From: Bigelowiella natans CCMP2755
Lineage: Eukaryota > Protista > Cercozoa
Direction of reading: 5' to 3'
Assembly: GCA_000320545.1 (NCBI GenBank)
Contig: ADNK01000727.1
Span: 1 to 39,336, forward strand
DNA length: 39,336 nucleotides
Below are positions 5,765-34,416 of this stretch, piece by piece (the stretch's first letter is position 1; every line of letters begins with the position of its first letter). Both the position numbers and the translations under genes were made by a program. The notes under the pieces were generated by a model, which worked only from the letters and a program-made list of their open reading frames with translations, was not told the DNA's origin and searched no databases.

Positions 5765-5818
<54 letters not shown>

Positions 5819-7624: not shown

Positions 7625-8169
7625 TGATGTGCGCCATGCCATCAGAGCTGCGCCATTTCTCTGCTGAGACGCTCAACCCCACAGCAAGCAGCAGCAGCAA
7701 GCTCAATCCTTTAGCTAGACAAGTTGCAATCCAAATGTCCTTCCACATGGATGCAGCTCAGCTTCAAGGACATCGATCCTTGAAGCACAATTTGGTCATT
7801 GGACATCAGTTTGGATGTAGCTCTGGTCATTGGACATCAGTTCAGATGTAGCTCCAGTCATCAGCGTAGACGCAATCCACCGGGAGCTAGCACTCCGTGG
7901 ATGTGGTCAGCACAGTGCAGTTGGCACGATGTGGTGACGACAATCCTCTGACGGGATGTCGTGGTCCTTGTCGCAAGGAACAATGTCGCGATCAGCGCCC
8001 TTGCGACAGCACATCACGTTGACACGTGCAGACAGCCGAAGCTTCTCGAAAGCTTCGGGAAACAATTCGGAACATCAATTTGCGCGCCAAATGCTGTCAA
8101 TGCGCAAACATGTGACGGAAGCAAAATCGTGATTGCAAGTGAAACAGACAAGTGCCTTCGCGCATTGCA
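7625..8169 (+). repeat. 5' LTR
   Basis: tgatgtgcgcc...cgcattgca, colinear with 33872-34416 with no indels. Confidence 0.96.
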
Positions 8170-8172
8170 AAT

Positions 8173-8188
8173 TGGCTTCCACTCCAGG
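8173..8188 (+). promoter_or_regulatory. Primer-binding site (TGGCTTCCACTCCAGG)
   Basis: Begins with TGG (complement of tRNA CCA) after a 3-nt spacer downstream of the 5' LTR. The cognate tRNA is not identified. Confidence 0.7.
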
Positions 8189-8220
8189 AAAATTTTTTTT
8201 GCCCCCCCCCGGACCCTCCC

Positions 8221-11200
8221 ATGACCCCTCTTGACACCGCCGTTGACGCTGCAGTGGCCTTCACGAAGGATCCCACCGACAGCAAGGCGGTGCAGCACGC
8301 CCTCAGCGCCCTCACGCCGAATCCCATCTTTTGCGAGTTGCTTTGTCAGGGTGTGGAGAAGGCCACGGACGCTCGCATGTTCAGAGCTTTCAGGTCAATG
8401 TTGATTGAGGCCATCCCGGAGGGACAACCTCGCCAAGCTGACGTTGGTGCTGCCAACTTGCAACTTTGGCGCACCTTCTTCGCTGCGGACAACGGCAACT
8501 CGTTGCCCGCAGACGATGCTGATGCTGTTGAGTCCCCCTCTGCTGATGGCAAACGGGGCCAGCAAGTGCAACCTGAAGTCAGAATTGAATCCACGAATGA
8601 CATCAACAAAGTCAGTGTCACCCTCCCGAAGTTCAATGGCTCGAGAGGCAAGTGTGCTCGTTGGTGGAAGAAGGTTGGAAAGACTTTGGAAAGTGCTCAC
8701 CCCGGTTTCGACTTGAAGGAAAAGAACCAGTGGTTGCCCACGATCCGGGGATGCCTTCAAGGACACCAATCGGGTTGCGAGAGACTCGAGCAATGCGAGG
8801 ATCGAGAACCCAAGTTGATTGGCACGGCAGACAAGTTGGATGTTTGCCTGCTCATGGAGAAGTTCGTGAAATCTCACGATCGGAACTCCAAGGACCACTT
8901 GCTTCAGGAGTGGCGGGCGCTGTCCCAGAACGATCGCGAGCTCATCGATGACTTCAAGACTCGCTTCTTCGGATCAGTCGCCGACCTGAAAGAGCAAGGT
9001 CACGTGATCCCACCTGATCAACTTTGTGATTGCTTCAGGGACACGTGCAAAGAGTCCGCCACTTTGCGCATCAAGAAGAAAGAAATCACCGACATCGATG
9101 CTGCTGTGGATCACATCGCGGAAATTGAAGCGAATGCTGTCAAAGGCACGTCGAAAGGTCTGCACAATGTGCCCCGATCTGATCGAGCCGGTGGAAATGA
9201 AGGCACGAAAGAGACGTTCACCGACAGAAAAGGTGAAGTTGGGTGCACCCATTGCTGCGGGTTGAAGCACGGGCAGTCCCAGTGTCATCGCCGCAAGAAA
9301 GGGAAACCCAAAATGACGTTGAAAGAGAGAATTGACTTGGAGGATCAAAGGGATGAACGCAGGAATGGTCACAACGGGAGAAAGGGAAACTTGAGGGGAA
9401 ACTTGAACAACGCATCTCAGGTTCTTCAGCAGCAGGCGGAGAAGCAGGGCAAAGCGATGAACACGTTGCCAACGATGCTCGGGGGAGGCAAGGAGGCTCC
9501 GCAGGAGCCGACCCTCCAGGACGTGCGTTCTGTGCTTCACGCTGCATCACCTTGCGAGGCCGCGGGGCCTCCTCCGGATGCCGCTGATGTCCCGCCCGTT
9601 GGTCCTGTGCCCAGCGCTGAGGATTGCAAACCAGCTTCAGCCCCCACCCCGACCCCTTCTCCACAAAGCGCTGACTCTCTTCACGGCAGCCGCAAAGTGT
9701 CCATGACGAACATCGGCTTGCGCAACTCAAAGGGACAGTTTGTCACCTTTGCTGCCCTCTGGGATTCTGGTGCCATGCCCGAGTCACGTGTCAACCTGCA
9801 CACAGTCAAGGCATTGGGCCCACAGAGGTTGGTTGAGGTGCATCGAGAAAATCACAAAAACGCTCAAGACCAGTCGACTTTCTCGACCATCGGTTCCATC
9901 GAGCTTGAGGTCAACCTGAATGGTGAGGTTGTGCCTCACACCTTCAAGGTTGCCCCTGTTCATGTGAACATTGTTCTGGGACAGGGATTTTTGGAATTGG
10001 TGGGAGGGGTCATTGATGTGGTGAACCACACTGTTGCCTGTCTCCGCTCATCGCGACGCGTCCAGCAACCTGTGATCAAAGTGTCGGAGTGGAAATCAGT
10101 CGGCAACATTGGAGCCAAGGATCATGTGAACAGTTTGCCGCCTCCTGAAGAATGCCGCAAGATGTGTCCAGGGAAGAACTTGCGCCAAACAGCGGAGATC
10201 CTCGAGCGGACCCCGCCGGACGATGACCCAACGGTGGAGCAGGGGCGGGAACGTGTGAAGCATTCACTCGATGCGAAGTGTGAAAGCATCACCGTGCCGA
10301 GAACTTCTCCTTCTCCGCACATTCGCCCTGTGCGCCTGCGACTCAAAGAGGGGCACGAGGACGTCATTGTCAATGCACCTCCTCGCCCGAGGCCGGACCG
10401 CGACTGGGACCGGATCGAGAACCAGGTTGCGGAGTGGGAGCGCCAAGGGAAAGTGGTCCCCACCACCTCTGCATGGAACACCCCGCATGTCGTCGCCGCC
10501 AAGTCTGCACCCCCTCATTTCAGACCAGCGCAAGACTGCAGGAGAGTCAATGAAGTGTTGGCACCTGTGAAGTTCCCGCTTCACCGGATCGATCTCATCG
10601 TCGATGATTTGGCGCGGAAAAAGATTGAATCCATTCTGGATCAGATGGAGGCACACATGCAGACGCCGGTCCACAAGAGGGACCAGTTCATGCTCGCCTT
10701 CAGCACGAGGAAGGGCAAGCACATGTTCACTGTGCTGCCCCACGGGACAAAGGTGTCCGGGGACCTGTGCACGCAGCGGAAGTTCGAGATCCAGTCCTCC
10801 GATGGCGGTTCCGTCCTCCTGTGGCATTTCACATTTTCACACGTTGATGATGACGCAGCAGGTGCGGACACGGTTGCAGCACACATTTTCATCATGCAGT
10901 GTGTGTTGGACAGGTTCCTGAAATTCGGGATGGTGATCCGTCCGGAGAAGTGCGAGTGGCTGAAAAAGGAAGTTGTGCATTTGGGTCATTTGGTTGGCGA
11001 CGGCATTGCACGCCCTGACCCCAAGAGCCTTGCCGCGTTTGACAGTCTTCCCAAACGCCCCCTGAACCACAAGGAGTTGCGTCGGTTCCTCGGCATGGCC
11101 CAGTGGCACCTCAAGCGCTTCGCCCCCGAATGTGCAGAATGTGCGGCCGTCCTTTCCTCCACCTGCAACAGAAAGCCCAATTCGGAAAGTCCTCTCGCGG

Positions 11201-11634
11201 CAACGTGGAACGCAGCCTGCCAGTCGGCGCATGATGGGATCATCGCTGTGTGCAAGTCTGACCTTCAGAACAAAGCATTCGACAAATCCTGCCGGTCCTC
11301 GCAGGTCTGGTTTGACTGGAGCAAGTCAGGCATCAGTGCGGTGCTGGTGCAAGATGGTGAGGTGGTTGGGGTGCATGGGCGAGCCTGCAATCCTGCAGAA
11401 TCTCGCCACTCCCCTGCCAAAGGCGAACTCCTCGCTTTCACCGAAGCCCAGCTCCACTTCCGTCCCCAGCTCCTCAGTCTGGATGGCTTCCTGATGGTGA
11501 CGGATCACCGACCGCTCCCAGGTGTCATTGAGAAATTGGATTCAGATGATGAGAACCTTGCCTCCCTCAGGGTCAAAACTGAGGAGTTCAGGGATGGGCG
11601 GACGCTGGTGCATGTCAAGGGCGACTCCAATCTG
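8221..11634 (+). pseudogene. Gag-Pol, 5' part (Gag with zinc knuckle, aspartic protease, RT, RNase H); hypermutated and interrupted
   Basis: CTHCCGLKHGQSQC knuckle; ALWDSGA protease; RT motifs DCRRVN, LPHG, HVDD (YxDD), HLGH; RNase H motifs DWS, ELLA, TDHRPL. No Tyr in the 1198-aa translation provided. Confidence 0.93.
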
Positions 11635-11635
11635 C

Positions 11636-11984
11636 AGCAGACTGCTACACCACACCCCACATTTGATTTCCCATCTGCCGTCAGCAGGGGAATGACACAA
11701 AATTTTCATTTCAAAAATTCACCTGCTGACGACCTACTGCTGAACTGAATTGTTAGAATGACATGGCAAAATTGCACGAGCATGACATGTCAAGTGTTCG
11801 ACATTTGATTTCCCATCAGCAATCAGTAGCAAAATGTGCGAAAATGCGCAACATGAAAGCTTCACCTACTGACGACCTGCTGCTGAACTGAATTGCTATG
11901 ATGACATGATGAAAATCACAGGCACAATTATCGAATCCCATGTGTTTTGTGAAAACAATCTTTGTTAAAAATGACATAGCAAAA
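11636..11984 (+). repeat. Left terminal inverted repeat of PLV
   Basis: agcagactgctacaccacacccc... is the reverse complement of 31984-32323 apart from 15 transitions and a 9-bp indel (counted by eye). Confidence 0.95.
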
Positions 11985-12024
11985 AATCATCGCAATGTTG
12001 CCCGTCACTATAGTCTTTGCAAGG

Positions 12025-14007
12025 CTATTGAGGGGAAGTTCTCTCGAAATTGAACACGTCGCAATGGATTTTCACGTCGTCGTTTTTCGGCCAGAAGTGA
12101 GAGGTCTCTCCAATGCGGAACTTATGCATCTGTCCTGGAACAATTCTGGTCCACGCGAATTTTTCGTTGATTCTTTTTGTCGAACGAACCGCAGAAAATG
12201 ATATTCGTTTCGCTCCGATCTGCGTTGCCAAGGTGGAAACATAGTGCATCTTCAAGGTGTGACTCTTGGCATCAGCAACGTTAATGAGATGAAGCACTTT
12301 CTCCCCCTTGAATCGATAGATGCGAACTGCATCGAATGCTGCATTGTTCCATTCCAGAGGCACTGCCCAAACCTGTTCGCCATCTTTCACATCCTCAAAT
12401 ATTTTTTTCAGATCTTCAGTAGTTTCGTATTCGTGGACGGCATGGGCTTTCCAATCAACTGGAGCATTTTTTGAGTCGCAGACGATGACCTTTTTGTCTT
12501 CTGTTTTCATTGCTGCTTTTAGTTGAGCTAAGAAGTCCATCTCCACTACCCAGCCCATGAAAGAAGGGTTTTGAAGGTTTTCGGCAATGTTGTATCCCAT
12601 TTTCACCGCCAAAAAACTGTGCTTGATCACCAGTAGCTTTAACACGTATTTACTCACGAATACTGGATGTTTATTTGTCACCAATCCCGGAGTCTTCAAA
12701 GTGCACACCAGATGGTTTATGGCGTCAGCGCTCTCGTGTCCCGCGGTACCCTTCAAAAGAGATTCTGCGTTTCCCACTTTGTCAATCATCCGATTTATTT
12801 GTCCCTTCACTGTTTTTAGATCTGTTGCAAACATCCATCGTGCAGAATGACCTGCAAAGTAGAACTTCTCGCGGAGCTTCTCGGAAAATTCATTCTCCTT
12901 GTCTAGACAATCGATATACGTACAGACTTCTTTTTGGAATGCCTCGTCCTTTGATGCAGCAAGGTATTGCTCCAATGTCCACGGATGCATTGTATGGCGT
13001 ATCACTTCATCGAAGGCTTCTTTGCCAGCCAAAGACTTTGTAACGATGTTAACCCGTACATTGTCGTAGTGGCATGATTGCTCAAGGGCTTGGTGGTGCT
13101 GTCCATCTATCCTCAGACCATCGAGCACCACGATGTCTGCTTTACTACCATTCAAGGTTCCAGTTGCTACTAATCTCGATTTGTTCAGCTCTCCATCATT
13201 GATAAAGGAGAACATCCGGGCAGCTTTCTTGGTCTCTCCGTTGAGGAAAACCACTGTCGGAGGTCTAGCACGCAAAAAATGGACCCATAAGACGTTCTTC
13301 CCCGCAGTCCACCTCGAGACTGCCCAGCCCCAAGTCGTCACCGATTTCCCAAGTCCAGGTGTTCCAACTATTTCAAGTTCACGCTCCTCCTCCAGCTTAG
13401 TCCAAAGCTCAATGACTTCCTCCCGCCCATACAATCGGAGTTCGCCATTTCCGGTAGCATTGCGCAGACCAGCAATACCCAATCCGCTCACGACGAAGAA
13501 TTTCCCTCTCTGTGGTGTATCTGAAATGTATATCTGCGCTGAAATGTCTTCCCAGTGGGCCTCTTCCCCCCTGCCGCTTTCATCAATTTCCATGGCTGAA
13601 CACACAGGCAAAACTATCTCAGCACACCAATTGCTCATCAGATGTTACAAAAATACATTACCGGTTGCATCCTCGAATTTCTTTGACACGTCCTTCAGTT
13701 CTGCCTCCTTCGCCTGAATTTCCTCGTCCAATTTGTCAATAGCACCCTTGAGCGCCTCTTCTTTCTCCTTATTCTTCTCCGTTGCCCAAGCGATGCTCAA
13801 AGCTTTTCTTTCATCCCTCAATTTCTCGATTTGTTTGCTAATAGAGTCCATCTGATTTCCCCATGCCTCAGAACGCTGAGAACACATCAAAGCTTAAGCT
13901 CCCGAACGCAAGCCTCGTAGGATAAGTACCTGTGCTTTCGAACTTCTCCTGCTAGGGATTCTTTCATCTACCTTCCTTTTCTCGTCAAAAGATCCACTAC
14001 GCTTCAT
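12025..14007 (-). CDS. Crinkler (CRN)-like protein: coiled-coil N-terminus, P-loop NTPase and C-terminal restriction-endonuclease-fold domain; exons 14007-13930, 13875-13662, 13595-12025
   Basis: Walker A GTPGLGKS, Walker B IVVLDG, FYFAGHSARWMF and WNNAAFDAV...HTLK motifs typical of CRN NTPase-REase proteins. Two GT-AG introns (13929-13876, 13661-13596) keep the frame. The true 5' end is uncertain. Confidence 0.8.
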
Positions 14008-14294
14008 CGAGTCTGATTTCGAGTCTGGTGTGAAGATCTTCACGGGAGACTCTCGTTGCGGCGAATCCCCGGAAAGAGCATTACCGGGAGTATTACCGGT
14101 ATTGCCCGTTAGTGTCCGTTAGTGTCCGAAGATTAGGGACTCCCATTTTCATCCCGGAATGCCCAGCAGCGGGGAGAGTCTCCGGTGAAGAACTGACACG
14201 TGTGGCTGATATGGCAAAGACATTAAATGTCAAATTTTCGGGCACACGATGCCTCAAAGCTCCAGCCCAGTGATGGTGTTTTCGTACCCAGGTT

Positions 14295-17200
14295 TCACCC
14301 ATTGATCCTCAAAGCCATCTTCAAACTCAACATCCTGAGGGGTGTACTTACCAAATGCTGGGTATGTTTGTTGGTTATTCTACTAAGATTACACTCCACA
14401 CAAGTTAATCTACAGTTGTTCCAGAGATGGGGTAGATCATTATCAATTCTATCCACAGAAACATTATCAGCAGTAAATCCACATCTACACACAGGGCATT
14501 GTGGATGATTATTAACAGTTCTTTTTATCCATTCCTCATCAATATATTCTTTATCTTTCCAAGTTCTACCAGCTCTTTTGTCCTGAGATTTATATGAAGA
14601 TACTTTCATTCGTAGTTTTTGAGAAATCATACTTTCTTTTAATCTGTAGCATTCTTTATCGCTGTGCTGATATATTTGTATCTGTGATAGGTCAGTTGAA
14701 CGAGTTATAGCAGTCCAGAGCCACTTGCGAGTAATTCTACAGGTGTTAGTATCGAACACGGTAATAGGGCCATCTACTGATAATCCTTGAAAACTATGAC
14801 AGGTAGAGGCATATGATAACCTAAAATGCTTACTAATTAATTCTATAGGAATTCTTATTTCTTCCATATCACATACATCATGTGTTACAAATTCTTTTTT
14901 ATTTACTTTAATAATTTCATAAGTGTAGTTCACATATAGTTTTGGTTTCTTATTGTACTTTTTACATGCAATCTCCATACCAGCATAGTAGCAAATACCA
15001 TCTACATAAACCTTTTTTCTCGGTTTCTTTTGTAGACCGTGGATATACTTACCTACTGAACGGGATCTAAAGTTGTAGAAGGTAATATTGTTAAGAGTCT
15101 TTACTTTATCCATACTTTCAACAACTTTAAAATATTTTTTTAGCACATCAAATGGTTTAGTTTTTACATCAAATATTTCTTGTTTTAATCGTGCAAGAGT
15201 ATTTCTTTCCTCGTCTGTTTTTACTCTCTTACAGATTTTAAGAGTGATTTGATTAGGGAACATATCATTCATAGCTTCAGTTGTTCTAACATCAATGTCT
15301 TTGATGTCATTAAACAGATATTCGTTTTCAATGGGATCCAATTGAGCTAAATCACCAGTAGCAATAAATTTTTTATTAGTATGCTTATCCATAAATAACT
15401 TAATTTTTGATAGTTGATGTATTGAATACATGTAAACCTCGTCAAAGCATATAACATCATGTGGTGAAATATCAAATTTTCTTATGCATTTACATTCGTT
15501 GTTATGAATGTTAAGGCTAAATAATCTATGATAAGTAATAGCATCGTGTCCGCTCTCACGAACATTTTGGCATGATTTATTAAACGGTGCTACGAACAAG
15601 ATTTTTTTACCTTTATATTTTTTAACTGAATAACTCTTACCACTACCAGGTAGTAAAGCATTCACAAGAGTTCTATCATGCTTATCAAATGCGTTTTTAA
15701 TTACTTCTGTATTCCATTCATTCACAATATCAATCTTATTAATGTTAATTGTTTCAGGTTCTGCCACTTCATTTTCTAAAGGAACAAAGTATTGACCCAT
15801 AACCTTAGTTTTTTCCTCCAATTTCACACCACCAATGTCTTTATTAAAATCAAAGTAAGGTTTAATCTTATCAACTTTGTCTCTTACAATGATACAATCA
15901 GTTTCAATAGCTGTAGGATGTAATCCTACAGATGAACATTTATCATATAAATTAAACATCTTAACAGAAACAAGGTCATGTGTCATATCTTTAATAGGTT
16001 TGAATGTTTCTCTTACCAGTTTTTTAGTGGTTCTTACAAGTAAGAATAGATCATCACTGATAGGGTTAATTTCGCCGCCATGTAATTTCTTATAATGGTT
16101 TGCTTCATTCAAATTTTTGTAAATTTTACACACTGATTTATGATTGTATTTCTTCTCAAGCTGTCCTGTAATTTTATTACATATGAATTTATTAGCATTG
16201 ATGGTTCCAAGTTCTGTTTTGTGCAGTTTATCAACTGCTTTGCTAAATTTAACAGCAGCAACATTAGAAGGTCTAATGTAGTGTAGTATATCGTAACTGT
16301 TTTCATTCATTTGTTTCAATTTGAATCCACATGCTCTGTTGTGTCTTTTAGGTAACAAGATGTTGTGAGCTTCACCTCCATCTAAACTCATTACAACACA
16401 CATTGCAAGGTCTTCTACAGAATGATCATCACATTTAACATGATTATCAAAATAATGAAAAATAGGAATTCGAGAGATTGATTTTGAAGCCCAAGTGCAA
16501 CATTCATTAACATCAATGCCATTTCCAACAGCATCATCACTTAGTCTTCCTGCAGCAGGTCCTTTGGGACGTGCTTCATTCATTCTTAATGCTTCATTGT
16601 TAAAAATGCTTGTGTGTTCTTTTTTGATGATTTTTTGATAGAAGTCATCATCTGCTTTCACAAAATTTTCATGGTTGTTTTCATTTGCATCACAAGTAAT
16701 GATGTCATTCACGTTGTCATGGTCAGGATGAGATGTGACACATGGTTCATTGCCAATTCCAAATGACAAAGAAAGCATTCTGTCATGTTGAAAAAATGTT
16801 CTTGGTTCGCATTTGTGAACATTGATCATTTCAATTGACAATTCCCTCATGTCGCCACAATGAAAACATTCAATCCATTCATCATTCACTGTTTCAATGT
16901 GAGATGCGATGTCATTGAGGTTTTCAATGAATTTGAAACAATCACTTTTTTCTTCATCCATTGATCTGAATTTGTGTTTGTTGTGCACTTGTGATGTGCA
17001 TTTGTCACATTCTGCTTCTTTTTTTTTCTGTTCCAATTCTTTGATTTGGTGATTGAGCAAATGAGCATGATCATTGTGAACCATGACTCTGAAGTTTCGT
17101 GGTGAGATGTGCTCATTGTGTTTCTCAGGTGCAAACTTGTCAACTGAATTGTGCACGTCATCGCAAACGGTCAGCCCTGGTTCACATTTCTCAAAAAACT

Positions 17201-18083: not shown

Positions 18084-18229
18084 TGTGTTGTTGGACACAT
18101 CATCATTGCAGATTGGATTTCTTTGAGTGAGAATCAAACGAATGAAAATTTGAAAAAAATCCATGGTTTTTTTGAGAGTTTTGAAACGACCATGAAATGG
18201 TTTGAAAAGAAAAAATCTGCAGTGTTGCA

Positions 18230-18547: not shown

Positions 18548-18902
18548 ATGCAATTTCATGATCATCACAATGATTGTTGTGATCATGAAATTGAACAATG
18601 AATGAGTTGAACATTGATGGTTTTTGTTTTGTGACCATCAACATTGTCATTGTGATCATCAACATTTTTGAACCTTGCATGCCAAGATGGTTCACTGCAC
18701 ATTTCTTTCTCTTCAACATTGGGTTTCACAAGACCTGATTTGATCAGCATGTCCCCATTCTGTCCTTTGCAATTGTCAATGTTTTTCATGAATGCTTCTG
18801 CAGATTCATCACTAACTTCAGGTTTTGTTGGAACTTTTTCATCCTTGTCATCGTCACTCATTGTGATGTGACTGCACATTTTGTGATGATTTCAAACGAA
18901 TG

Positions 18903-23377: not shown

Positions 23378-25069
23378 GTGGATGCAATTAGCAAAACTAC
23401 CGATGTTAGCAGTTGTGAAACTACCGATGTTGGTAGATTTCCAGAAATCGACTACAGTTTGCCCCCCATGGATGAAATTTTTGTTGATTCAGTCTCTTGT
23501 TTTAGAGAAGAGATGAAAAACAGCAACAATGCTAAAAAAGCAAATGCAAAAATGAGATTTTTCATTCCAGCTCAACAAAGAGCAGTTGACCCATCTGAAT
23601 TGTGTTTTCAATTGAACGTTGCTGCCAGAACAGCTGGAGATGCTGATTTACCAGCGGTTGACCAATCAAGATTGAGACTTGCTGAAGGTGGAGTTCATTC
23701 TCTCTTTGGAGAGATGATCATCAGAGATGGTGGAGGCAATGTCATTGAAAAAATTGACAACTGTGACCTCATTGCTGAAATTTTGCAAGACACTTTGTCA
23801 ACCAAAGAAGTCAAAAACAATTTGTTGAATGTGGAAGGTGTTTGTGATGACCAAGGATTGTTCAACACAGTTCATGGCAAATTCAATGTCAATGGCAACA
23901 CCTTGGAATTGAAAGCACCTGTGGCTCAGGTCGTAGCTAATGCTCTTCCAGCAGGACAAGCTGATTGCAATGCTGCTGCCAATGCTGCTGCTGTTGTAGC
24001 TGTGACCACTCCCGCTTCACCATCAAGAGCACTTGGTGTAGGAACTCAATTCTTGACTCAACTAAGACCAGGTTCTGTTGTCAAATTTGATGGAAATGGT
24101 CACACAGTTGCTTGTGTTGTGTCTGATGCAGAATTTGCATCTGCTACTGACATTGCTGCTGATGTTGCTGCTGCTAACATTGTTGTTGGCAGAGATTTTG
24201 TTGAAGGATTGCTTGAAACAGAAAGTCGTTGCAAAAAATTCCATCACGATGGACTTTTCACACCAGATGGAGCTGTTCATTGCTTCCAACCATGCTGCTC
24301 CGGATTTTCATCTCAAAACAAATGCCTTCATCTTGATCATCATGGTGGGTTGGAATTTGAATTCACTTTGGACAGCAATGCTGTGATTTTCGATGACACT
24401 GACACAAACAACAATGCTAACATTTTCATCAAAAAAGGACATGTCCATTGCACTGCTCTTGAATTCAGTCCAGTTGTTGAAGCAGCACTTGCCAAGGCAC
24501 ACATGAGAGGTTTGTCTGTGAGTTTCCCAGTTCACCATGTAGTTAGTAGAACACAAAATCCTTCTACCTCTGTTTCTCAGGAACATCAAGAAAGTTTAGC
24601 AATTCTCAAAATGGTCAAAATTGTTGGTAGACCAACTGGGTTTGACACAAACACTGGAGCATCATTTTTCTTTGAAGATCCAACCAGTGCCAAAAGAATT
24701 CACTGGGAGATCAACAAACAAAGATTTACTGAGTGTGGCAATGATGACATTTCACCTCAAGTTGTTTTCATGAATGACAGAATTGGCAAAAATCTGTTAG
24801 GAGATTGCAAACATGCCACAATTTCTCATGGAGAATTCAAAGAAGCAGGCAAATCTGCTTCAATTTTCAACACCCAAAACTGCAAAGAAGGCAATCACAC
24901 AGGAGTCAACACCAACCGAGCAACCATGAGACTCAAAATTGAAGGAGGAGATGGTGTTGGTTCCTCACAACCTGGCATTGTCAATCAAGGCAGACAAATC
25001 GATGTGTCAATGATGCACGAGCAACACATTGTGTTGAAAGATGGAGACAGTCTCACAGTGAGATCTCAA
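23378..25069 (+). CDS. Major capsid protein (double jelly-roll, PLV type); ancestral stop TAA inferred to have become CAA at 25067-25069
   Basis: MRFFIP...VDPSELCFQLNV...GGVHSLFGEMII...IEKIDNCDL resembles PLV MCP N-termini. Size about 560 aa, placed directly before the penton. Confidence 0.75.
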
Positions 25070-25123
25070 ACTTTTGTCATTCTCAAATTCCACCAAAATT
25101 TGCATCACAAAAATTCACTTCTA

Positions 25124-25852
25124 ATGCAAATCAATGTGAAACAACACAAAATTCATTTCAACAGCAAAGACAGAATTGCTGGAACAACCAACAATTCAAA
25201 TTGTCAATTGAACAGTGCAATTGATGATGCATCTTCTGTTTCCATTGCAAGAGTGAGATTTCCAATTACTTGTTGCAATGTGTCAGCTAAAAATGACATT
25301 TTGGAAATTGAGAACAGTTCTGGAAACAAAACAAGCATGGAATTGACAAAACAAAATTGTGGTGCTACTGAATTAGTGACAGAATTGCAAACTGAACTTT
25401 CAACTAATGCCTCATCAGTGGGAACTTTCACTCCTACACGCAATGCTGAAACAGGTAAATTCAGCATGGGTTGCAGTGACAATTTCAAAATGACCAAAAA
25501 CGAATGCTCTAAGTTTTTAGGTCATGATGACACTGCACCCCTTTCTGCATTGCATGTAGCAGATGACATGAGTGATCTGTCACCAAAACCTGTTCATGTC
25601 CAAACTGATTTGCAACTGGATGCAGAATTAGCAGGTCAATCATCAAACATGGTTTGTGAAGTTGGTGGCGATGTTTCTTTTGGTAGCATTTTGCATGACA
25701 ATGAAAAACCAAGTGAAAGGATTGAATCAATGAAAAAAAAGAATGCAAGCAACTTGAAATTTGCACTTGTAGATGGAGATGGAGATGAAATTGAAAACAA
25801 TGGTGTGGATTGTTCCATGACAGTGTCTTTGTTTCATGAGACTAATGAATGA
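25124..25852 (+). CDS. Minor capsid protein (penton, single jelly-roll)
   Basis: IHFNSKDR...SIARVRFPITCCNV...FALVDGDGDEIENNGVDCSMTV matches the penton pattern (SxDR...PxxxYNV...DxxGxxI). Confidence 0.78.
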   Translation: MQINVKQHKIHFNSKDRIAGTTNNSNCQLNSAIDDASSVSIARVRFPITCCNVSAKNDILEIENSSGNKTSMELTKQNCGATELVTELQTELSTNASSVGTFTPTRNAETGKFSMGCSDNFKMTKNECSKFLGHDDTAPLSALHVADDMSDLSPKPVHVQTDLQLDAELAGQSSNMVCEVGGDVSFGSILHDNEKPSERIESMKKKNASNLKFALVDGDGDEIENNGVDCSMTVSLFHETNE

Positions 25853-28062
25853 GAAAAAAAAATGTCCAATTGTTGTCAATGAAAATGAGTGTTAGCATCA
25901 CAGGTGAAAATGTCCCCAACCCCAATGCATCTGGTGGAACAAACAATGATGATCCATCAACAGGAGAAACAGATGGCATTGCAAGCAATTCAAATGACAT
26001 CAATTTTGATGAAGGTGCATCTGTGAATGGCACAAAATTTCAAAACACAGGAAATCAAAACGGACTTTTTGTGGGTCGTGATTTGTCTGGTAATTCGTCC
26101 ATGGAAATGGTCTCTCCAACAACCTGCATTGATTTTGTGCATCAATCAGGATCTGATTGTGCGAATCGCATTCTGTCAAATGATGATGGTGTTCACTTCA
26201 CAGGGGATTTGCACATGGGCATCATTGGACCCAATTGTGCATCTTCAAATCAAATGGCATCCACGACAGGAACTTTCAATGGAATCAATTTAGACGGAGT
26301 CCCTTTGAATCCAAGAAATTCTTCAGTTCACGGGATTGCATCTGACATTGCAAGTGGAAACATGAAATTTGCTGCAAATTCCAATTTTCAAGAAAAATTG
26401 ACTGCATTGGGTGATTTCAATCTTTCAAATGAAACAACAAATGATTCCATCAATGGATTAGTTGTGACAGGAAACAAAATCACATCATTAGATGACCTTG
26501 CAATGAAACATGTAGCCACAGGATCATCAGAGAATTTGCAATGCACAGCACAATTGTCCAATTTCACAGATTCATCACAAAACAACATGCCATCAACACC
26601 ATCAATGTTGTGCAATGAAAATGTTGACAATTTTGAAAGATTGACAGTTGGACAACCTGACCCTGACGATGCCTTTGGAATGGATGTTCATCAGAACTCC
26701 GGTGATGATTGCATGGGCAACACATCAACTGTTTGTGCAAAAAACAATTTGAGCATTGCAGAAAACGGTGAATGTTTTCAAGCCACACCTACTCAATTGA
26801 ACAGACGGACATTGTTCAATCAAAATGATGATTTCAGTTCTCAACCTGAAGAAATCACATCAGTTGGTTCCAATGATGACACAAATTGGACTCACATTCA
26901 AGATTGCAGTTTTGCAACTGAGAGAATGGTGGGTGATGCATTTGTTTGTTTTCAAATAGCTACGAGTGTTGATGATTTGAAAACCAAAGTCCCCCTTTCT
27001 GCCATTTCAAGTGTTCAATTGTCACAAGTTCAAGGGACATCGGTCAATGGTAGGGTTCACATCGATGAAAACATTGAAACAAACAACAATTTTTGTGAAC
27101 ATCACAGATGGATTGCAAAAAAGATGGAGGCATTTGATCACTGGAGCATGAACGAATTAGAATCATTTGGTTTTGAAAAAAAGGATGTCAATGTGAATCA
27201 AGAAGTTCTAAAAATGAAAGATGTTGAAACAAAAACAACAACATTGGAAACTGAAACAACCACATTAGAAACAAAAACAACAACAACAGAAAACAAACTT
27301 GATCCAATTACTTTGTCTAACAACGAACATCAATTTTCAAGTTCCATTTTTGCAAATGGTTTGAGAAGCACAACACAACCTCACATCGATGGTGTTTGTT
27401 TGGGAAAAGATGTTCATGATGGCAGTAGCATTGAATTCGTTAGTCCAACATGCTGCATTGATTTCGTTCATGACAATTTGGGAACAGATCATGCGAATCG
27501 CATTTTGTCCAATGATGATGGCATTCACATCACAGGGGATTTGCATGTTTTCAACACGAAAATTGCTGGAGATGTCACATTTCAAGGTTCATTGTTGTCG
27601 AACACATTGACAGATTCAACAAATGGATCAAGTGCAATTGAAGCATCAGCAACAAGTGATGGCAATGATGTTCAAAATGGATCAATTGATGCAAATGTCC
27701 CCATCATGCGAGTTGCCAATGATTCTTCTTCCATTGTCTTTTTTGAAAGTGGTGATCAGCCACCTTTTCATGATCCTCGTGCAGAAAGTGGCAAATCTAC
27801 CGTTTCAGAATGTGCTTCAAATGTTGTGTCATCAAATGTTCGTTCATCATCTCCATCGTGTGATTTGTTTGATCTCACAGCAGACAAAGCAGTTGGTGTG
27901 AATTCTGGTTCTGATCCCAACATGCCAACTGGAGCTCAACACAGAGTCGAATTAAATGGTCAGAATTTTGTCACTTTTGCTGTTTCCAATCCACAATTCG
28001 TTTGGAATGAAAAAAAAACATGCAGTTACATTGCAATCATGTGGATGATGTTAGCAATGTGA
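25849..28062 (+). CDS. Fibre/spike-like virion protein with a duplicated module
   Basis: Two copies of G..xGxD...S.E.VSPT.CIDFVH...D.ANRILSNDDG.H.TGDLH, plus a short TTTLET coiled-coil repeat. Asn/Ser/Thr/Gly-rich. Confidence 0.6.
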   Translation: MRKKNVQLLSMKMSVSITGENVPNPNASGGTNNDDPSTGETDGIASNSNDINFDEGASVNGTKFQNTGNQNGLFVGRDLSGNSSMEMVSPTTCIDFVHQSGSDCANRILSNDDGVHFTGDLHMGIIGPNCASSNQMASTTGTFNGINLDGVPLNPRNSSVHGIASDIASGNMKFAANSNFQEKLTALGDFNLSNETTNDSINGLVVTGNKITSLDDLAMKHVATGSSENLQCTAQLSNFTDSSQNNMPSTPSMLCNENVDNFERLTVGQPDPDDAFGMDVHQNSGDDCMGNTSTVCAKNNLSIAENGECFQATPTQLNRRTLFNQNDDFSSQPEEITSVGSNDDTNWTHIQDCSFATERMVGDAFVCFQIATSVDDLKTKVPLSAISSVQLSQVQGTSVNGRVHIDENIETNNNFCEHHRWIAKKMEAFDHWSMNELESFGFEKKDVNVNQEVLKMKDVETKTTTLETETTTLETKTTTTENKLDPITLSNNEHQFSSSIFANGLRSTTQPHIDGVCLGKDVHDGSSIEFVSPTCCIDFVHDNLGTDHANRILSNDDGIHITGDLHVFNTKIAGDVTFQGSLLSNTLTDSTNGSSAIEASATSDGNDVQNGSIDANVPIMRVANDSSSIVFFESGDQPPFHDPRAESGKSTVSECASNVVSSNVRSSSPSCDLFDLTADKAVGVNSGSDPNMPTGAQHRVELNGQNFVTFAVSNPQFVWNEKKTCSYIAIMWMMLAM

Positions 28063-28613
28063 GAGAAACTTCAAAAGGTCACAGAGCAACACAATCAAAA
28101 GAATCATGTCGTGAAGTAGGAATGTCTCAATGTGCCAGAAACAAAAAAACTTTGACAGATGGGTTGACACCTGTAGTTCTAAAAAGTGCTGGTCATGAAG
28201 TCATTTCTGTTGAAAAAGAAGAGGAGGTAAAAAAACCAGCTAAAACAATCAAAAGAGTTCCAGTTGAAAATGGTGTCAAAAAGAAAGAAGAGGAAAAAGT
28301 AGAGGAAGAAAAAATTGGTCTTGAATCAAAAGAAGACAGTAATGATGAAAAAGTGAGCATGGAAATGGAAGAAGATGGTGATGATGAGAGTTCAGCAACA
28401 GAATCAGATGTGGAAAATTGACTCTGTTCATGTGATGGAAGGAACAATGATTGTTTCATTGACTTTGGGTGTGTGTGTGATGATTGGATGCACACTTGGT
28501 GGAGTGTCGGCATCAATTACTGATTTAGACCCTGCTAACGATCATTTGATTGCAAGTTGAAAAAACATTTTTTTGAAATTTTGTTCACAAAAATCATCCA
28601 AATCTTTGCAACC

Positions 28614-29218
28614 ATGAGTTCTTCTGCCGCACATTTCCGCAATTCAGTTTCAATTGATGGATTGCTTGCCGGTCCTACCATTGTTGGAATGGACACCGAA
28701 AAAACTGCTGTTCTTGACAGTCTCAATCAACAAATTTCTGACTTTCAAATGGCAGAAACAAACAATGCTCAAGCAAGAGCAGATTTGCAAAATCAAATTG
28801 ACAATGCTAATGCTTCCATGACTCAGGCCATGGGTGATTTGACCCAACTTGTTGATGACAACAAAGCAGATGTTGAAGGCAAATTGGCAACAGAAACCAA
28901 TGAAAGACTTTATTGGCAAGTGAAGCAAGCAACAGAAATGCATTTGTAGATGGTGAAATTGCCAGACTTGACCAACAACATGCTGATGATGATGCCAGAC
29001 TTGCAGCTGTTGAAGCAACACAAGCTACTTTCAATTCAGATGTGGAATCCAAAATTCAAGAGAGAATCGATGCTCACAATGCTGATCTTGACAATGCCCT
29101 TCCTCGTTTAGCAAAATTAGAACATTGTGTTGAAATCGATGAATCAGGAACAGAACCAGTTGCAAGAATCAAAGGAGGTGTCAAATTTGAAGCAAGTGGT
29201 GATTTCGTCCAAGGTTAG
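28614..29218 (+). pseudogene. Coiled-coil viral protein with a frameshift near 28910
   Basis: ORFs 28557-28949 and 28913-29218 overlap and continue the same heptad-like sequence (ATETNER / ASEASNR). Confidence 0.55.
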
Positions 29219-29241
29219 ATCACAAATGTGATTCAAATGAC

Positions 29242-29520
29242 ATGCAAAAAATCCAACAATTAATGACAATGTCCAATGTCAAAGGTGGTGGTGCCATTTT
29301 TGAAGAAACACCTACAATGGCAAATGATGTAGCAGGTCAAACAATGGACACCATTGATCAACAATTGAACGATGATGATGCCCAAAATGCAGAAAACAAA
29401 TTGCAACTTGATTTTTCAAAAGAAGTTTTCACAATGGACAAAGAAAACAAAACTGTTGCGATGAATCCTGAACATGAACTCATCATTCCTAATGATTCAA
29501 TTCAAGGATGGTTCGTTTGA
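29242..29520 (+). CDS. Small viral hypothetical protein
   Basis: ORF with the same coding bias as its neighbours. Confidence 0.4.
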   Translation: MQKIQQLMTMSNVKGGGAIFEETPTMANDVAGQTMDTIDQQLNDDDAQNAENKLQLDFSKEVFTMDKENKTVAMNPEHELIIPNDSIQGWFV

Positions 29521-29551
29521 AACAGCACAGTTTTTTCATGGTCATGATGTG

Positions 29552-30169
29552 ATGACCATGAAAAAAGTGCATTTTTGCAGATCAACGTGTTCAAATGCAA
29601 GAGAAACACACATAGGTTCTGCCACTATGGATCCAAAATTGAGATTGCAAATGCATCTTGCTAATTTCAGAGCATGTGAAAAAGGTTTTGGTAATTTTTG
29701 CTCTTCGCATCAAATTTTAAAAAGAGACAATTGTGTGTTCAAAGTTGTGTTGGAAAAGGATGCTAAAAAAATGTCCGTTCATCAGAAACGAAAGAAAGAA
29801 GCAGAACTAACAGCTGAAGAAAAAACAAAAAGAAAATGTGTCAACAAAAATGTTCCAGGTAGAGATGTGAAACAATGTGGAACAGATGACAGAGATCACA
29901 TCAATTGTCATGCCAGAGATCATCATGAAGACAAAACAAAACACGATGAAACATGCTGTCCCTTCTGTGATGGACATGTGATCAAAAAATGTCACAAACA
30001 TCATGTGCACACTGAAAAGTATGCAAAAAATCTTCTCAAATCAAATGATGAAATCAAAAACACCAATGAAAGTGAGAAAGAAAGCAAGATTAGCATTGAA
30101 ATTGAAAAAATTAGGTTGGAAAGGAATGACAGAGACAGGAATGAACAGAGCAAAGCAATTAGCATGTGA
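29552..30169 (+). pseudogene. GIY-YIG endonuclease, hypermutated
   Basis: KVHFCRS...THIGSAT...RLQMH...CVNKNVPGR reads as VY...YIGST...R...H...VNK after restoring TA. The 3' end is probably extended by read-through. Confidence 0.75.
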
Positions 30170-30791
30170 CGATGCTGTGGACATTGAAGACATTGTGGTG
30201 ATGAATGCTTGGTTTAGAAGACATCAATGCGTGTCAAAAATGGGTCATGATGAATGGAAAGCACAAGGGAAACCAATGGATCAAGGACAAAGAAACAAGA
30301 GAAGAGGTGCCGCAAGTTGGGCCGGATGGGGGGGAGATGCTGGTTTTGATTGGATCAATGGCAAAAAGGTTCAAGATGAAATTGAAAAATGCAAGACAAG
30401 CAAGAATGAAAAGCATGTTCCAAAATCTCTCAGCAAAGAAGACAGGAAAAAACAAACAGAGAGCATTTTTTGTGGTGGAGACAGACCAAAGTTGAGAAGT
30501 TTCAAAAGCAAGAAATCCAAATGGACTGTTGAAGCTGACAAGCATTTCAAAGGTGACACATCCTTGTCCAACATGACCAAAGTTTCAGATGTTCCTTTGA
30601 AATCTTCAAGAGAAATTGTGAACAAAGGCAAAGGAGCTCACCATTCTGGAGGCAGTCGTCCAAATCAAAGTGCCGAGTCTTGGAGCAGAGCCCGTCTGTG
30701 TTCTGTTTCACTTGGAGGTCCCAGTCGTGACATTGACAAAAAGATTGCAAGCAAATGTGATGTTCCTTCATTGGAACAAAAAAATCTGTAG
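30045..30791 (+). CDS. Two-domain viral hypothetical protein (WGGDAG domain plus a domain resembling DUF5824 from memory)
   Basis: RAKQLA...AWFRRH...WAGWGGDAGFDW, then VPKSLS...VNKGKGAHHSGGSRPNQSAESWSRARL. Family assignment is from recall and needs an HMM check. Confidence 0.55.
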   Translation: MMKSKTPMKVRKKARLALKLKKLGWKGMTETGMNRAKQLACDDAVDIEDIVVMNAWFRRHQCVSKMGHDEWKAQGKPMDQGQRNKRRGAASWAGWGGDAGFDWINGKKVQDEIEKCKTSKNEKHVPKSLSKEDRKKQTESIFCGGDRPKLRSFKSKKSKWTVEADKHFKGDTSLSNMTKVSDVPLKSSREIVNKGKGAHHSGGSRPNQSAESWSRARLCSVSLGGPSRDIDKKIASKCDVPSLEQKNL

Positions 30792-30982
30792 CAATGCAAT
30801 GTTGAAAAAATCAACCAAAAGACAGAAAGATTTGTTAGCAGCTCACTAGCTCACAGCAAGCATCATGGCAAAAACATGTGGCTTCTGTGAGAATGAATCC
30901 AATGTTGGGTGAAACTTTCAAAGAAGCACACGAGATGGCAACTGAAAAGCATGGCAAGTGAATGATTTTTGTTGTTGTCATC

Positions 30983-31199
30983 AATGACAACAAATCTCAT
31001 TGAATGTTTGTTGAAAACAATGGAATTAGAGAAACGATCAAAAAAATTAGAAGAAAGGATGAACAAATTGCAAAAAATTGACAAGTTGTTGATGACAGAA
31101 AACAGTGATTTGTTTGTCAAATTGCAAATTGTGAAAAAACCATTTGATTTCAATGAAGATGTGAAATGGGCTGTGTGTGACATTTTGGTAGATGATTGA
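30983..31199 (+). CDS. Small coiled-coil viral protein
   Basis: ORF with a heptad pattern. Confidence 0.35.
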
Positions 31200-31927
31200 G
31201 TGCCAAGATGTTTTTTGCATTCATCTTCTAATTTGATGTTGTCTTTGTCATTTGATTTTTCACAATGTTCTCTAAATGACTTGTCAAAATTCTTTGATTT
31301 GACATCATTAGGTGACACATTTCCAATTGTTCCTTCAACACTGCCATCACTGCATTTCACTTTGAAGGTAGCAGGTTCTTGATGGTCATTTTTCTTTGCT
31401 TTGTTTGCATGGTCTGACATTTCAACGATGCATTTCTGCTTTTTGTTTCGCAAATTGCATGCAGGTTTTGACTCAATGTCTGCAAGTTTTTTGAATTGTT
31501 CATGATCTGGCATTCTCATTGATTTGCTCAATCTCATCAATGTCCTTTCATCGCCTCTGTCCACTAACAAGTTGTTTTTTTTGGCACACTGTTTCAATTT
31601 CAGTTCATGTTTGTGAACCATGGAGTTTGTAGCTGCCACTTTTTCACTCTTTTCAGTGATGAACAAATGATGCAATTTGCAACCCATCCAGGGCCTTTTG
31701 CCATCAGTGCATCCATGACATGACATGTGATCTTTTGATCTTGATGCTGGTTGAGTTCCCTTGCCTTGCCCAAATTCAACAACAAGTTCTTCAGTGGATT
31801 TCCTTTTGCATGTGTCCATGTCAGACGACATTGCATGCAAAAATCTTTTGTTCTTCAAAGATCCAAATTGTTTTTCAGTCAGCCATTCATCTGATGGTTT
31901 TCCTTTTTTTGATTTGAATGTTCTCAT
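31196..31927 (-). CDS. Lys-rich viral hypothetical protein next to the right TIR
   Basis: 5' two-thirds of ORF 30863-31927. The remainder looks like antisense read-through after a lost stop. Confidence 0.5.
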
Positions 31928-31983
31928 TTGTCACTTTGGGTGAGAATGAATTCACAGTGTTTTCAACGATGCTCTGCTGTGGA

Positions 31984-32323
31984 TTTTGCCATGTCATTTT
32001 TGACAAAGATTGTTTTCACAAAACACATGGGATGTGCCTGTGATTTTCATCACGTCATCATGGCAATTCAGTTCAGCAGCAGGTCGTCAGTGGGTGAAGC
32101 TTTCACGTTGCGCATTTTCGCACACTTTGCTGCTGATTGCTGATGGGAAATCAAACGTCGAACACTTGACACGTCATGCTCGTGCAATTTTGCCATGTCA
32201 TTCTGACAATTCAGTTCAGCAGCAGGTCGTCAGCAGGTGAATTTTTGAAGTGAAAATTTTGTGTCATTCCCCTGCTGACGGCAGATGGGAAATCAAGTGT
32301 GGGGTGTGGTGCAGCAGTCTGCT
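31984..32323 (-). repeat. Right terminal inverted repeat of PLV
   Basis: Reverse complement of 11636-11984. Confidence 0.95.
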
Positions 32324-33853
32324 GCGTCGGACTTCTGGTCAAGAACGTGGCCAAGTGAGAAGATGGAAAAGGGCTCCCTGACCAACACAGTTTGCAGCAT
32401 CACCCTTGAGGGTGGCGATTTCAAGCTGCGGAGCGAGGACCGTCGGGACCTCAGCGAGCGGAAAGAGAAATGTGGGTTGGTGTGCCAAGTCTCTGACACG
32501 CATGCTGAGGTCAAAACTGAAGATGCGCAGAGGATGTGCGTGCCCGCTCGCAGTCGCCGTTCTCTGCTCTGCAGTCTCCATTTCCCTGATCATCAGGGGG
32601 AGCACACTCTTGTCCGCAGGCTCCAGCCCCACTGCACTCCCAACAAGCAGGAACACGTGCGGGAGTTTCTGAAGCACTGCACCTGTTGCACCTCTGAGCC
32701 GCAGATGCTTCTCCGCCGCGAGTCCCCCAAGTCCAAGCAACAGTCTGTCATCCAAGCGGACAAGCACTTGGACGTGGCACAACTGGACGTGTGCTCTCGT
32801 GGGGACCAGAACTGCCTCACGTTTGCGGATGTCAAAACGAAGAGGGTGTGGGTCAGGAAGCTTCTCAAGAAGGGCGCCGCGAAAAAGAACAAGGGCGCCC
32901 ACAAGCGCAAAGTGCTGGAACAGCATGTGATCTGGGAGTCCAGCTTGGGCCAAGTGCCCAAGCAGTTGCGGATGGACAATGAGGATGCGTCAATCGCTGT
33001 TCCTCACAAGAACATCCGCGCTCACCCGGCTCACCGTCCCCAGAACAATGGCATCATGGAGAGGGCTCATCAGGAGGTTGCACGTCTGTGCAGGTCGATG
33101 AATTCGACCCCTGATGAAGTGTGCAAGTGCCTCCGTGTCAACTTGGAACCCCTCCAGCCTGCACTTGAAGCTGGGGGAGGCGAGGAGCACAAGGTGAAGT
33201 GTGGGCTAGCTTCAAAGCAAGCTCAGCCGTCAGCCAACATTGCCACGGCGTCGGCACATGACGGTGGGACTCTCGAACCGGGAAGCTTGGTGCTCGTCAA
33301 AGTGCACTCCCGCTCCCGGAAGAAAAGCGATCCTGCATGGGTGGGACCGTTTGAGGCACAGAGTCGTGCCTCCACCAAGTCACACTTCCTGAAGCGCAAT
33401 GACAGGCTGTCTCACCGTCACATCGACGATGTGAAACCGTTCTCCTTGGCCGACGAGACTTTCAAAGACTCCAAGGTGAACCCTGTTGTGTTCGAAAAAG
33501 GGAAAAGCCACTCAGGCAAGATGCCAAAGAGCTTCGACGTGAAACATGAGAACCTGAATGCGGACTGCTCCGGGGACTGGAAAGGTGAGACCGTGTGGTT
33601 GGGACGTCCGGGAGGGGAAGAGCTTGAACGAGTTGTGTCCAAGTTGAAGCTGCGAGGCTTCAAGTCAGCCGTGCTCGTCGTCCCCGAAGTTCCCTTCCGT
33701 GATTGGTGTGCCACGTTGGAGGGCATTCGGAACGCCCGTTGGCATGGAGTTGAGCCCGGAGATGAGCACCAGTTTTGGGTGGACTCATCGGGCCGCCCCC
33801 ACTGCAAGCCCCCTGTTGCTTGGTGGGTTGTGAGGATTGCTGGCAAAGGGTGA
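32324..33853 (+). pseudogene. Pol 3' part: integrase (HHCC, DDE, GPF) plus a C-terminal adenine-methyltransferase-like domain
   Basis: LHFPDH...CTCC; QLDV, RMDNE, PQNNGIMER; WVGPF. Begins ASDFWSR, completing the RNase H terminal motif. No Tyr in the translation. Confidence 0.92.
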
Positions 33854-33863
33854 ATTCGCGTCT

Positions 33864-33871
33864 GAGGGAGG
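33864..33871 (+). promoter_or_regulatory. Polypurine tract
   Basis: GAGGGAGG immediately before the 3' LTR TG. Confidence 0.75.
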
Positions 33872-34416
33872 TGATGTGCGCCATGCCATCAGAGCTGCGC
33901 CATTTCTCTGCTGAGACGCTCAACCCTGCAGCAAGCAGCAGCAGCAAGCTCAATCCTTCAGCTGGACAAGTTGCAATCCAAACGTCCTTCCACATGGATG
34001 CAGCTCAGCTTCAAGGACATCGATCCTTGAAGCACAATTTGGTCATCAGACATCAGTTTGGATGCAGCTCTGGTCATCAGACATCAGTTCAGATGTGGCT
34101 CTGGTCATTGGCGCAGACGCAATCCACCGGGAGCCAGTGCTCCGTGGATGTGGTCAGCACAGTGCAGTTGGCACGATGTGGCAACGACAATCCTCTGACG
34201 GGATGTCGTGGTCCTTGTCGCAAGGAACAATGTCGCGATTGGCGCCCTTGCGACAGCACATCACGTTGACACGTGCAGACAGCCGAAGCTTCTCGAAAGC
34301 TTCGGGAAACAATTCGGAACATCAATTTGCGCGCCAAATGCTGTCAATGCGCAAACATGTGACGGAAGTGAAATCATGATTGCAAGTGAAACAGACAAGT
34401 GCCTTCGCGCATTGCA
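33872..34416 (+). repeat. 3' LTR
   Basis: Direct repeat of 7625-8169, followed by TSD TGCG. Confidence 0.96.

Follow-up and report, generated by a model that had tools for sequence, protein, structure and literature searches.

RIP, as known from Neurospora and other ascomycetes, kills mobile DNA by dense transitions in a dinucleotide context; it is cytosine-based, premeiotic and RID-dependent. Homology triggers it, it belongs to the sexual cycle, and besides leaking into flanks it generates TpA and stop codons. In Bigelowiella natans, TpA->TpG/CpA hypermutation of integrated viruses has been measured by Mettrop et al. (bioRxiv 10.64898/2026.01.13.699255), whose main text reports 231 mutations, nearly all at TpA, at about 6e-7 per site per generation in lines passed through single-cell bottlenecks. 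The same preprint draws the comparison with RIP, proposes an ADAT2 deaminase (candidate Bn78255) and describes 124 TpA-depleted clusters in which reverse-transcriptase domains are enriched. Its model for the enzyme is amphioxus ADAT2/3, which is described as having a natural A-to-I activity on DNA and as preferring A in GAA and C in TCG (PMC10354150).

The locus presented here lies in a window of 39,336 nucleotides, the whole stretch of DNA that was analysed, and it shares with the system of Mettrop et al. the species, the TpA->TpG/CpA change on both strands and the targeting of foreign DNA. The core claim, TpA hypermutation in B. natans, is thus already known, and the view of a first-pass annotation, which was aware of no characterised pathway of this kind, is not supported; the preprint made the same comparisons with RIP and deaminases. 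The two regions measured there retain TpA at 3.3% and 9.2%, whereas this locus represents the end state. The main text of the preprint contains no mention of LTRs, ApT, flanks or Polintons and reports neither a flanking-base preference nor a spared island; its TpA-depleted clusters (Table S10) may include this locus.

Two foreign elements are nested in the window (Table 1). The outer one is a Ty3/gypsy LTR retrotransposon by its LTR pair and its order of protease, RT, RNase H and integrase, the Pfam match of the integrase being weak (E 0.055). The inner one, 20.7 kb between inverted repeats (11634-32325), has the size (15-25 kb), terminal inverted repeats and A32-type ATPase of a Polinton-like virus. 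The two halves of pol are in frame across the virus, and this frame arithmetic, together with the spacing against the relative P0001, implies that the virus inserted without a target-site duplication. Of the Gag-Pol first given as 1198 aa, only the stretch up to 11633 belongs to the retroelement, and what follows in the 1201-aa ORF comes from the viral repeat.

Table 1. Coordinates of the features of the nested elements and their flanks.
Feature	Position	Strand	Remarks
Left flank, partly hypermutated (spread outside LTR)	7050..7623	.	CA+TG 228/kb vs 128/kb immediately beyond
5' LTR	7624..8169	+	6 TpA remain; 546-column match to 3' LTR
Ty3/gypsy-type gag-protease-RT-RNase H	8221..11633	+	Pfam RVT_1 and RT_RNaseH; no TpA, no Tyr
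Left terminal inverted repeat, Polinton-like virus	11634..11984	.	partly mutated
Largely spared island	11961..16200	.	TpA o/e 0.48-0.87; repeated in genome; RNA-covered
Crinkler/RHS-like NTPase gene, viral cargo	12025..13644	-	Atlas 0.98-0.99 to CRN-like clusters; 11 Tyr retained
Polymerase-superfamily-1-helicase fusion ORF spanning mutation front	14298..18395	-	Pfam AAA_30 and UvrD_C_2; polymerase label putative
Spared-to-erased gradient within single ORF	16200..16800	.	200-base bins of TpA o/e
Erased virus body	16701..32000	.	TpA o/e 0.10
A32-like packaging ATPase	20385..21152	+	Pfam Pox_A32 E 1.5e-05, exceeds curated cut-off
Likely major capsid gene (to 25066) and penton-sized gene (from 25124), fused by stop read-through	23471..25849	+	
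Right terminal inverted repeat	32033..32325	.	no TpA
Remainder of pol (integrase region)	32326..33853	+	1 TpA, no Tyr; weak Integrase_H2C2 match
3' LTR	33871..34416	+	no TpA
Right flank, partly hypermutated	34417..34800	.	CA+TG 227/kb vs 120/kb further out; 8 TA

The near-absence of TpA from the retrotransposon, noticed at first reading, is borne out by the counts: none in 7889-11645, where base composition predicts 178.8, and one in 32326-34416, where it predicts 98.6. For the viral DNA the same observation stands over 16701-32000 (141 TA). The virus extends further left than first read, and there 11961-16200 is not erased, with o/e ratios of 0.48 and 0.87. Host DNA in the window is rich in TA, as had been said (o/e 0.79-0.82), and the erasure is confined to foreign DNA apart from a spread of about 0.4-0.6 kb into the flanks, which takes the signature beyond the LTRs to ~7000 and ~34800, wider than first claimed. 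ATA/TAT sites make up 6 of the 29 TA in the left flank (7050..7623), against 20 of 38 outside. CpG had been called plentiful, which is true of the retroelement (o/e 0.7-0.8) and not of the virus (0.25). Since viral CpG per kb hardly changes between the spared part (11.5) and the erased part (9.2-9.6), the low viral ratio comes mostly from new C and G, which speaks against additional CpG decay there. A variant genetic code was likewise dismissed, because Tyr is used normally in adjoining genes.

The direction of change is read from proteins and from repeats within the window, since viral and metagenome contigs yielded no DNA from closely related free-living viruses. Not one Tyr remains in the 1138 codons of Gag-Pol (8221-11634) or the 523 of the integrase part, as the first-pass annotation had noted together with His and Cys at conserved Tyr positions; the catalytic YxDD is HVDD here and YVDD in P0001. 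In ten columns 70% or more of the relatives have Tyr; the element has kept it in none of them, with His in six, Cys in two, and Arg and Gln in one each. All ten close retroelement relatives carry Tyr, at 1.5-4.1%, which upholds the direction proposed, and the viral relatives likewise retain Tyr. The 17 differences between the 5' and 3' LTRs comprise 9 of CA/TG, 6 of TA against CA or TG and 2 of AT/GT type, and against the paralogue P0042, 96 of 135 differences fit one TA/CA/TG site, 25 of these being His/Cys swaps. The B. natans model Bigna1/70816 contains a 100% identical piece, and its N-terminal part matches Gag-Pol by inspection.

The virus tells the same story. All 15 substitutions between its inverted repeats have A/T at left and G/C at right. 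In the fusion ORF, whose first part we take from its motifs to be a polymerase and whose superfamily-1 helicase part is supported by Pfam, ancestral Tyr is retained at 0 of 27 positions over aa 30-490, 4 of 15 over 491-660 and 21 of 29 over 661-1278; the 27 are replaced about equally by His (12) and Cys (13), and both strands are affected. Such a fusion in a B. natans Polinton-like virus is mentioned in PMC12721341. Of the 107 differences that could be polarised in the N-part of the window's polymerase-helicase, 60 are single-step A>G changes at TpA and 1-2 are C>T, a spectrum unlike the C:G>T:A change, mainly at CpA, that defines RIP. The two halves of ORF 23471..25849 are matched separately by relatives, with a CAA at 25067, where the relative P0090 ends; opposite the 22 Tyr of P0090, a capsid relative, stand 11 Cys, 8 His and 3 Phe. 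P0092, which is 80% identical, shows 19 differences, of which 14 are A>G at TpA. The putative major capsid protein, which in a Polinton-like virus would be of the double jelly-roll type, reaches Atlas 0.95 to an NCLDV capsid cluster, a recognition below threshold, and no Pfam, PHROG or PDB sequence match names it as capsid.

LTRs, TIRs and paralogues differ almost solely at TA/CA/TG sites, and contigs from two DNA runs (X1, X2), compared over 5001-17000, equal the TA-free stretches with 0 differences. Other copies differ as CA/TG at five listed places. Among 40 of the ~965 variant rows there were 21 at TpA, 8 at ApT, 8 other transitions, five of them the partner base of a CA/TG swap, and 3 transversions. 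These results show that copies were hit independently, after insertion, in DNA; the first proposal, a host process that turns A:T into G:C at TpA on both strands of a retroelement and of an unrelated virus, is supported by the repeat and paralogue differences and by the Tyr->His/Cys replacements.

The virus is not erased evenly. From 16000, TpA o/e in successive 200-base bins is 0.79, 0.68, 0.40, 0.13 and 0.00, a front that fades over ~0.6 kb toward a transcribed island and lies inside one ORF. The CRN-like gene in the island is spliced and polyadenylated (RNA contigs 12094-12459 and 12449-13596, 0 differences; poly(A) at 11945 in 40 reads; splice joint 13595-13662), and only its mRNA matches the window copy exactly. 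Since RNA contigs over 14300-16500 differ from the window copy by 18-28 letters each, that RNA comes from paralogues. RNA depth is ~0 in erased bins and high in 11801-16200; across 24 element bins, which are autocorrelated and contain a single island, TpA o/e follows RNA depth with Spearman coefficients of 0.83 (X15) and 0.57 (X21), the environmental RNA runs X18-X20, whose shares are small, being left out. Within elements, the depth of DNA contigs is likewise correlated with TpA (0.56). The island is itself repeated, with as many as 10 different contigs covering a single place and two paralogous proteins whose fronts differ, P0064 keeping Tyr from ~aa 301 and P0063 being erased throughout. 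It has not escaped entirely, since A>G at TpA accounts for 17 of the 64 amino-acid differences in its polymerase-helicase part.

Sparing also depends on context. The island has 100 ATA/TAT and 38 CTA/TAG sites against 6 and 116 in the erased virus, where the latter class accounts for 116 of the 141 surviving TA, and TAG survives best. The preferred motif would be 5'-A-T-[A] with a bias against G at +1. After TpA exhaustion, A-N-[A]-T may come into use as a minor target: the support for an ApT target comprises only pairwise differences and a G/A ratio test, which gives an odds ratio of 1.82 (p 3e-5) for the retroelement, against 1.07 for the erased virus. A Markov-based 4-mer test found no depletion of A-N-A-T in any element, the polymerase-helicase protein has no excess at ApT (5/382 vs 5/401 positions), and ACGT/ACAT differences could alternatively come from CpG decay.

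We favor, at a probability of roughly 60%, the reading that A:T->G:C change at TpA on both strands was made by the host mutator measured in 2026, likely acting on transcriptionally silent foreign DNA, and most simply by an adenine deaminase making inosine. The retroelement would have inserted first and the virus then into its pol gene; the whole block would have been silenced, and A-to-I damage followed by replication would, in repeated rounds, have fixed TG or CA until targets were exhausted. Because the change creates no new stop codons, ORFs remain open and fuse while catalytic tyrosines vanish. TpA erasure is likely a genome defence. Like RIP it kills mobile DNA by dense dinucleotide-context transitions and leaks into flanks; it differs in its opposite direction and its open ORFs. 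As with AID/APOBEC3 and ADAR, context-dependent transitions fall on viruses and retroelements in a motif tuned by -2 and +1 bases, but APOBECs are described as changing C and ADAR as acting on double-stranded RNA, whereas here chromosomal DNA is changed on both strands (PMC10661471). ADAR-type hyper-editing fixed by reverse transcription was rejected, since both strands, a DNA virus and flanks are hit and TAG survives best. The activity described for amphioxus ADAT2/3 also differs, since TpA dominates here and polarised C>T is rare (PMC10354150).

The chemistry could be another under the same targeting: a modified thymine (e.g. oxidised) or adenine at TpA, mis-repaired or mis-copied, would give T>C or A>G without a free adenine deaminase. 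TpA is palindromic, and the spectrum cannot reveal whether A or the opposite T was damaged; moreover, the ADAR optimum given in PMC10661471, UAG, is the most resistant context here, and the sole natural DNA-active ADAT2 described has other preferences (PMC10354150). The change is, however, almost purely transition, as predicted for deamination, its 5' T requirement with graded -2 and +1 effects is deaminase-like (cf. the APOBEC motifs in PMC10661471), and no literature report of such modifications in B. natans was found; we regard this alternative as somewhat unlikely. An artefact of assembly or base calling, or an intrinsic composition of the element families, deserves almost no credence: the read comparison was limited to 5001-17000, but there both DNA runs refute an artefact, relatives of both elements keep their Tyr, and in the preprint the mutations were observed as they arose de novo, with some of them verified by Sanger sequencing (bioRxiv 10.64898/2026.01.13.699255).

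Targeting is where the remaining readings diverge. The first-pass annotation had spoken of an inverse RIP, which fits the effect; as a trigger, homology among repeated copies is quite improbable. Both elements are repeated, LTRs and TIRs are hit, and the leak of a few hundred bases into unique flanks recalls RIP, but the spared island is no less repeated, the left TIR carries fewer changes than the right one, and the main target in the preprint of Mettrop et al. is single-copy. Repetition alone is probably insufficient for mutation, given this island, which favors silent-chromatin targeting over RIP-like repeat counting; silence may also be a result of mutation and not its cause. Foreign DNA might instead mutate evenly, the island being kept by purifying selection on its cargo gene or by recent recombination with a fresh viral copy. 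The intact, expressed CRN-like gene agrees with this, and recombination could produce fronts that differ between paralogues, yet the spared zone takes in ~2.5 kb of the tail of a polymerase gene already inactivated in its front half, its boundary is a gradient, with the preferred ATA/TAT lost first, and not a breakpoint, and scattered hits are present inside; we consider this explanation unlikely.

With deamination of silent DNA as the preferred reading, the locus adds to the known process an LTR element that is saturated, its TpA wholly lost; a context preference, with ATA/TAT erased, CTA/TAG resistant and ApT as a putative minor target, which any candidate enzyme would have to reproduce; a measured reach into the flanks of ~0.4-0.6 kb; and a 4-kb island, repeated yet transcribed and largely spared, with a gradient edge within one ORF. 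It is thus a natural experiment, in which a spared transcribed island adjoins erased DNA in one viral genome. Annotation is affected as well, since erased elements with long and even fused ORFs are called genes, as with Bigna1/70816. Tentatively, a DNA adenine deaminase that is guided by chromatin and prefers 5'-AT[A] may be a general eukaryotic defence, in Rhizaria and diatoms, erasing silenced domains, whether transposon or virus, single or repeated, and blocked by transcription over a few kilobases. If true, chromosomal DNA would have a natural adenine base editor, and an enzyme that deaminates adenine there would be relevant to base editing.

Both nested mobile elements are strongly depleted of TpA. 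Counted against base composition, the Ty3/gypsy-type retroelement holds none of the 178.8 TpA expected at 7889-11645 and one of the 98.6 expected at 32326-34416; the observed/expected ratio is 0.10 in the virus body (16701-32000) versus about 0.8 in host DNA at either end of the window. CpA+TpG rises in step with the loss, and not one of the 1138 codons of Gag-Pol or the 523 of the integrase part specifies tyrosine. The first-pass annotation had reported both the near-absence of TpA from the retroelement and AT-rich viral DNA, but not host DNA, and the lack of Tyr; counting bears it out. This deficit is far outside chance, and the observation is real and striking. Nor is it an artefact in the stretch compared with reads (5001-17000): contigs from two DNA runs match the TA-free sequence at 9674-9992, 10084-10841 and 10135-10407 with 0 differences, and other genomic copies carry CA/TG swaps in read contigs. 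The 14 DNA data sets with a strong match are perhaps not independent of one another or of the assembly.

Nested elements and the neighbouring host gene
Feature	Position	Remarks
Left LTR of retroelement	7624-8169	
Right LTR of retroelement	33871-34416	
Virus	11634-32325	20.7 kb; flanked by terminal inverted repeats (TIRs); interrupts retroelement
Host gene	5148-7068	Spliced, GT..AG introns; immediately left of mutated flank

Reverse transcriptase and RNase H are recognised in the retroelement (Pfam), and part of its Gag-Pol has an identical search hit, the B. natans gene model Bigna1/70816, which identifies the host. Frame arithmetic and the spacing in the relative P0001 indicate that the virus landed in pol without target-site duplication (junctions 11633/32326). 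The virus is best called a Polinton-like virus because of its putative polymerase-helicase fusion, A32-type ATPase, penton-sized gene and likely capsid gene, the capsid label being a lead only; no integrase or recombinase was recognised within it. Its inverted-repeat sequence (11634-11984) reaches a contig depth of about 3900 versus 88 on host DNA in one DNA run (X2) and has several differing loose ends, suggesting that these ends are common to many elements or non-autonomous copies. A short tract at 1280-1600 with many GCTAGC-type words resembles the partly mutated flank at 7050-7623 and is possibly a small degenerate repeat.

The change occurs in DNA and runs from A to G at TpA. Gag-Pol has lost the Tyr from all 10 conserved columns, and the 10 relatives, far from being equally Tyr-free, hold 1.5-4.1% Tyr. 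When the viral polymerase-helicase was polarised with one paralogue and two environmental relatives, 60 of 107 differences in residues 30-490 were single-step A>G at TpA, with 5 more possible, 5 at ApT, 1-2 C>T and the remainder transversions or multi-step, so that the predicted dominant change was found. The capsid and penton-sized genes changed in the same direction. At 25067, where the relative's capsid gene ends, CAA replaces the stop and two genes are fused; hypermutation extends ORFs and misleads gene calling.

The first-pass annotation knew of no characterised pathway, and in this it was mistaken: an existing account of B. natans covers the core process, and ours is a rediscovery. In the preprint's main text, Mettrop et al. 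(bioRxiv 10.64898/2026.01.13.699255) report it from mutation accumulation, with 231 of 302 mutations inside two viral regions, nearly all TpA transitions, together with 124 depleted clusters and an enrichment of reverse-transcriptase domains; they compare it with RIP and name an ADAT2 candidate, Bn78255.

Comparing one LTR with the other gives 17 differences: 15 are TA/CA/TG changes, 2 are AT/GT changes, and there is no other background change. All 15 substitutions between the TIRs carry G/C in the right repeat. The paralogue P0042 shows 135 differences, including 25 His/Cys swaps. These swaps and the CA/TG pairs mean that a single ancestral TA was struck independently in each copy after copying. 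Numbers in the preprint's main text would give about 1.1e-5 mutations per TpA per generation, and hence complete erasure in about 5e5 generations, which fits the age limit estimated from the clean LTRs, less than about 8.5e6 generations.

When TA sites per kb of erased virus are compared with those of the largely spared island (11961-16200), survival, given in rough values since the baseline is a single 1.9-kb gene part, is 0-0.03 for ATA/TAT, 0.02 for TTAA, 0.06 for GTAA, 0.27 for CTAC and 0.53 for CTAA. At YTAT tyrosine sites, 8 of 9 clear cases became His, which places the change at the A of 5'-ATA on the opposite strand (p 0.04). A minor ApT target besides TpA is suggested by 7 of the 15 TIR differences, by the comparison with P0042, where 13 of 26 transitions outside TpA are of this kind (background 0.19, p 4e-4), and by the retroelement, where the odds ratio is 1.82; no ApT excess was seen in the erased virus, and CpG decay could explain part. 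Among 196 TA sites in spared viral DNA (14291-16200), the palindromes CTAG and GTAC number 0 and 2; such sites, which resemble restriction sites, may have been avoided since an earlier time.

We favour, at a probability of about 0.6, a process in which silenced foreign DNA would recruit a candidate host adenine deaminase; the enzyme would act at TpA on either strand, replication would then fix TG or CA, and a site once hit would be largely immune. The signature reaches 0.4-0.6 kb past either LTR, and RNA of the host gene stops at about 7068, where the signature starts. The island ends in a 0.6-kb gradient inside one ORF, which from its erased to its spared side retains 0/27, 4/15 and 21/29 ancestral Tyr. 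RNA is abundant over the island and near zero over erased DNA, TpA correlating with RNA at 0.83 and 0.57 (two runs, 24 non-independent bins), from which we infer the tie between mutation and silence. Several points call for caution here. Silence could also follow mutation rather than precede it; DNA contig depth, which is no copy number, correlates too (0.56); the RNA that covers the tail of the polymerase gene derives from paralogous copies; the island has itself taken some hits; and expression of the preprint's virophage target is described as not unusual. Repetition by itself is not decisive, since the island is repeated in the genome and two paralogues have differing fronts.

Inside the inverted repeats lies a spliced, polyadenylated Crinkler/RHS-like NTPase gene (12025-13644, minus strand); loose ends, and joints in the RNA at 11984-13682, suggest other virus copies without this gene or with different cargo there. 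Spliced RNA with GT..AG joints at 14360-16530 (plus strand), antisense to the polymerase-helicase gene and from paralogous copies, spans approximately the spared zone.

What this locus adds is an LTR element at saturation, a flanking preference, an ApT target and a spared island, all absent from the preprint's main text and from literature searches; the supplements may bear on them. The locus is thus a useful end-state example that limits possible targeting and motif.
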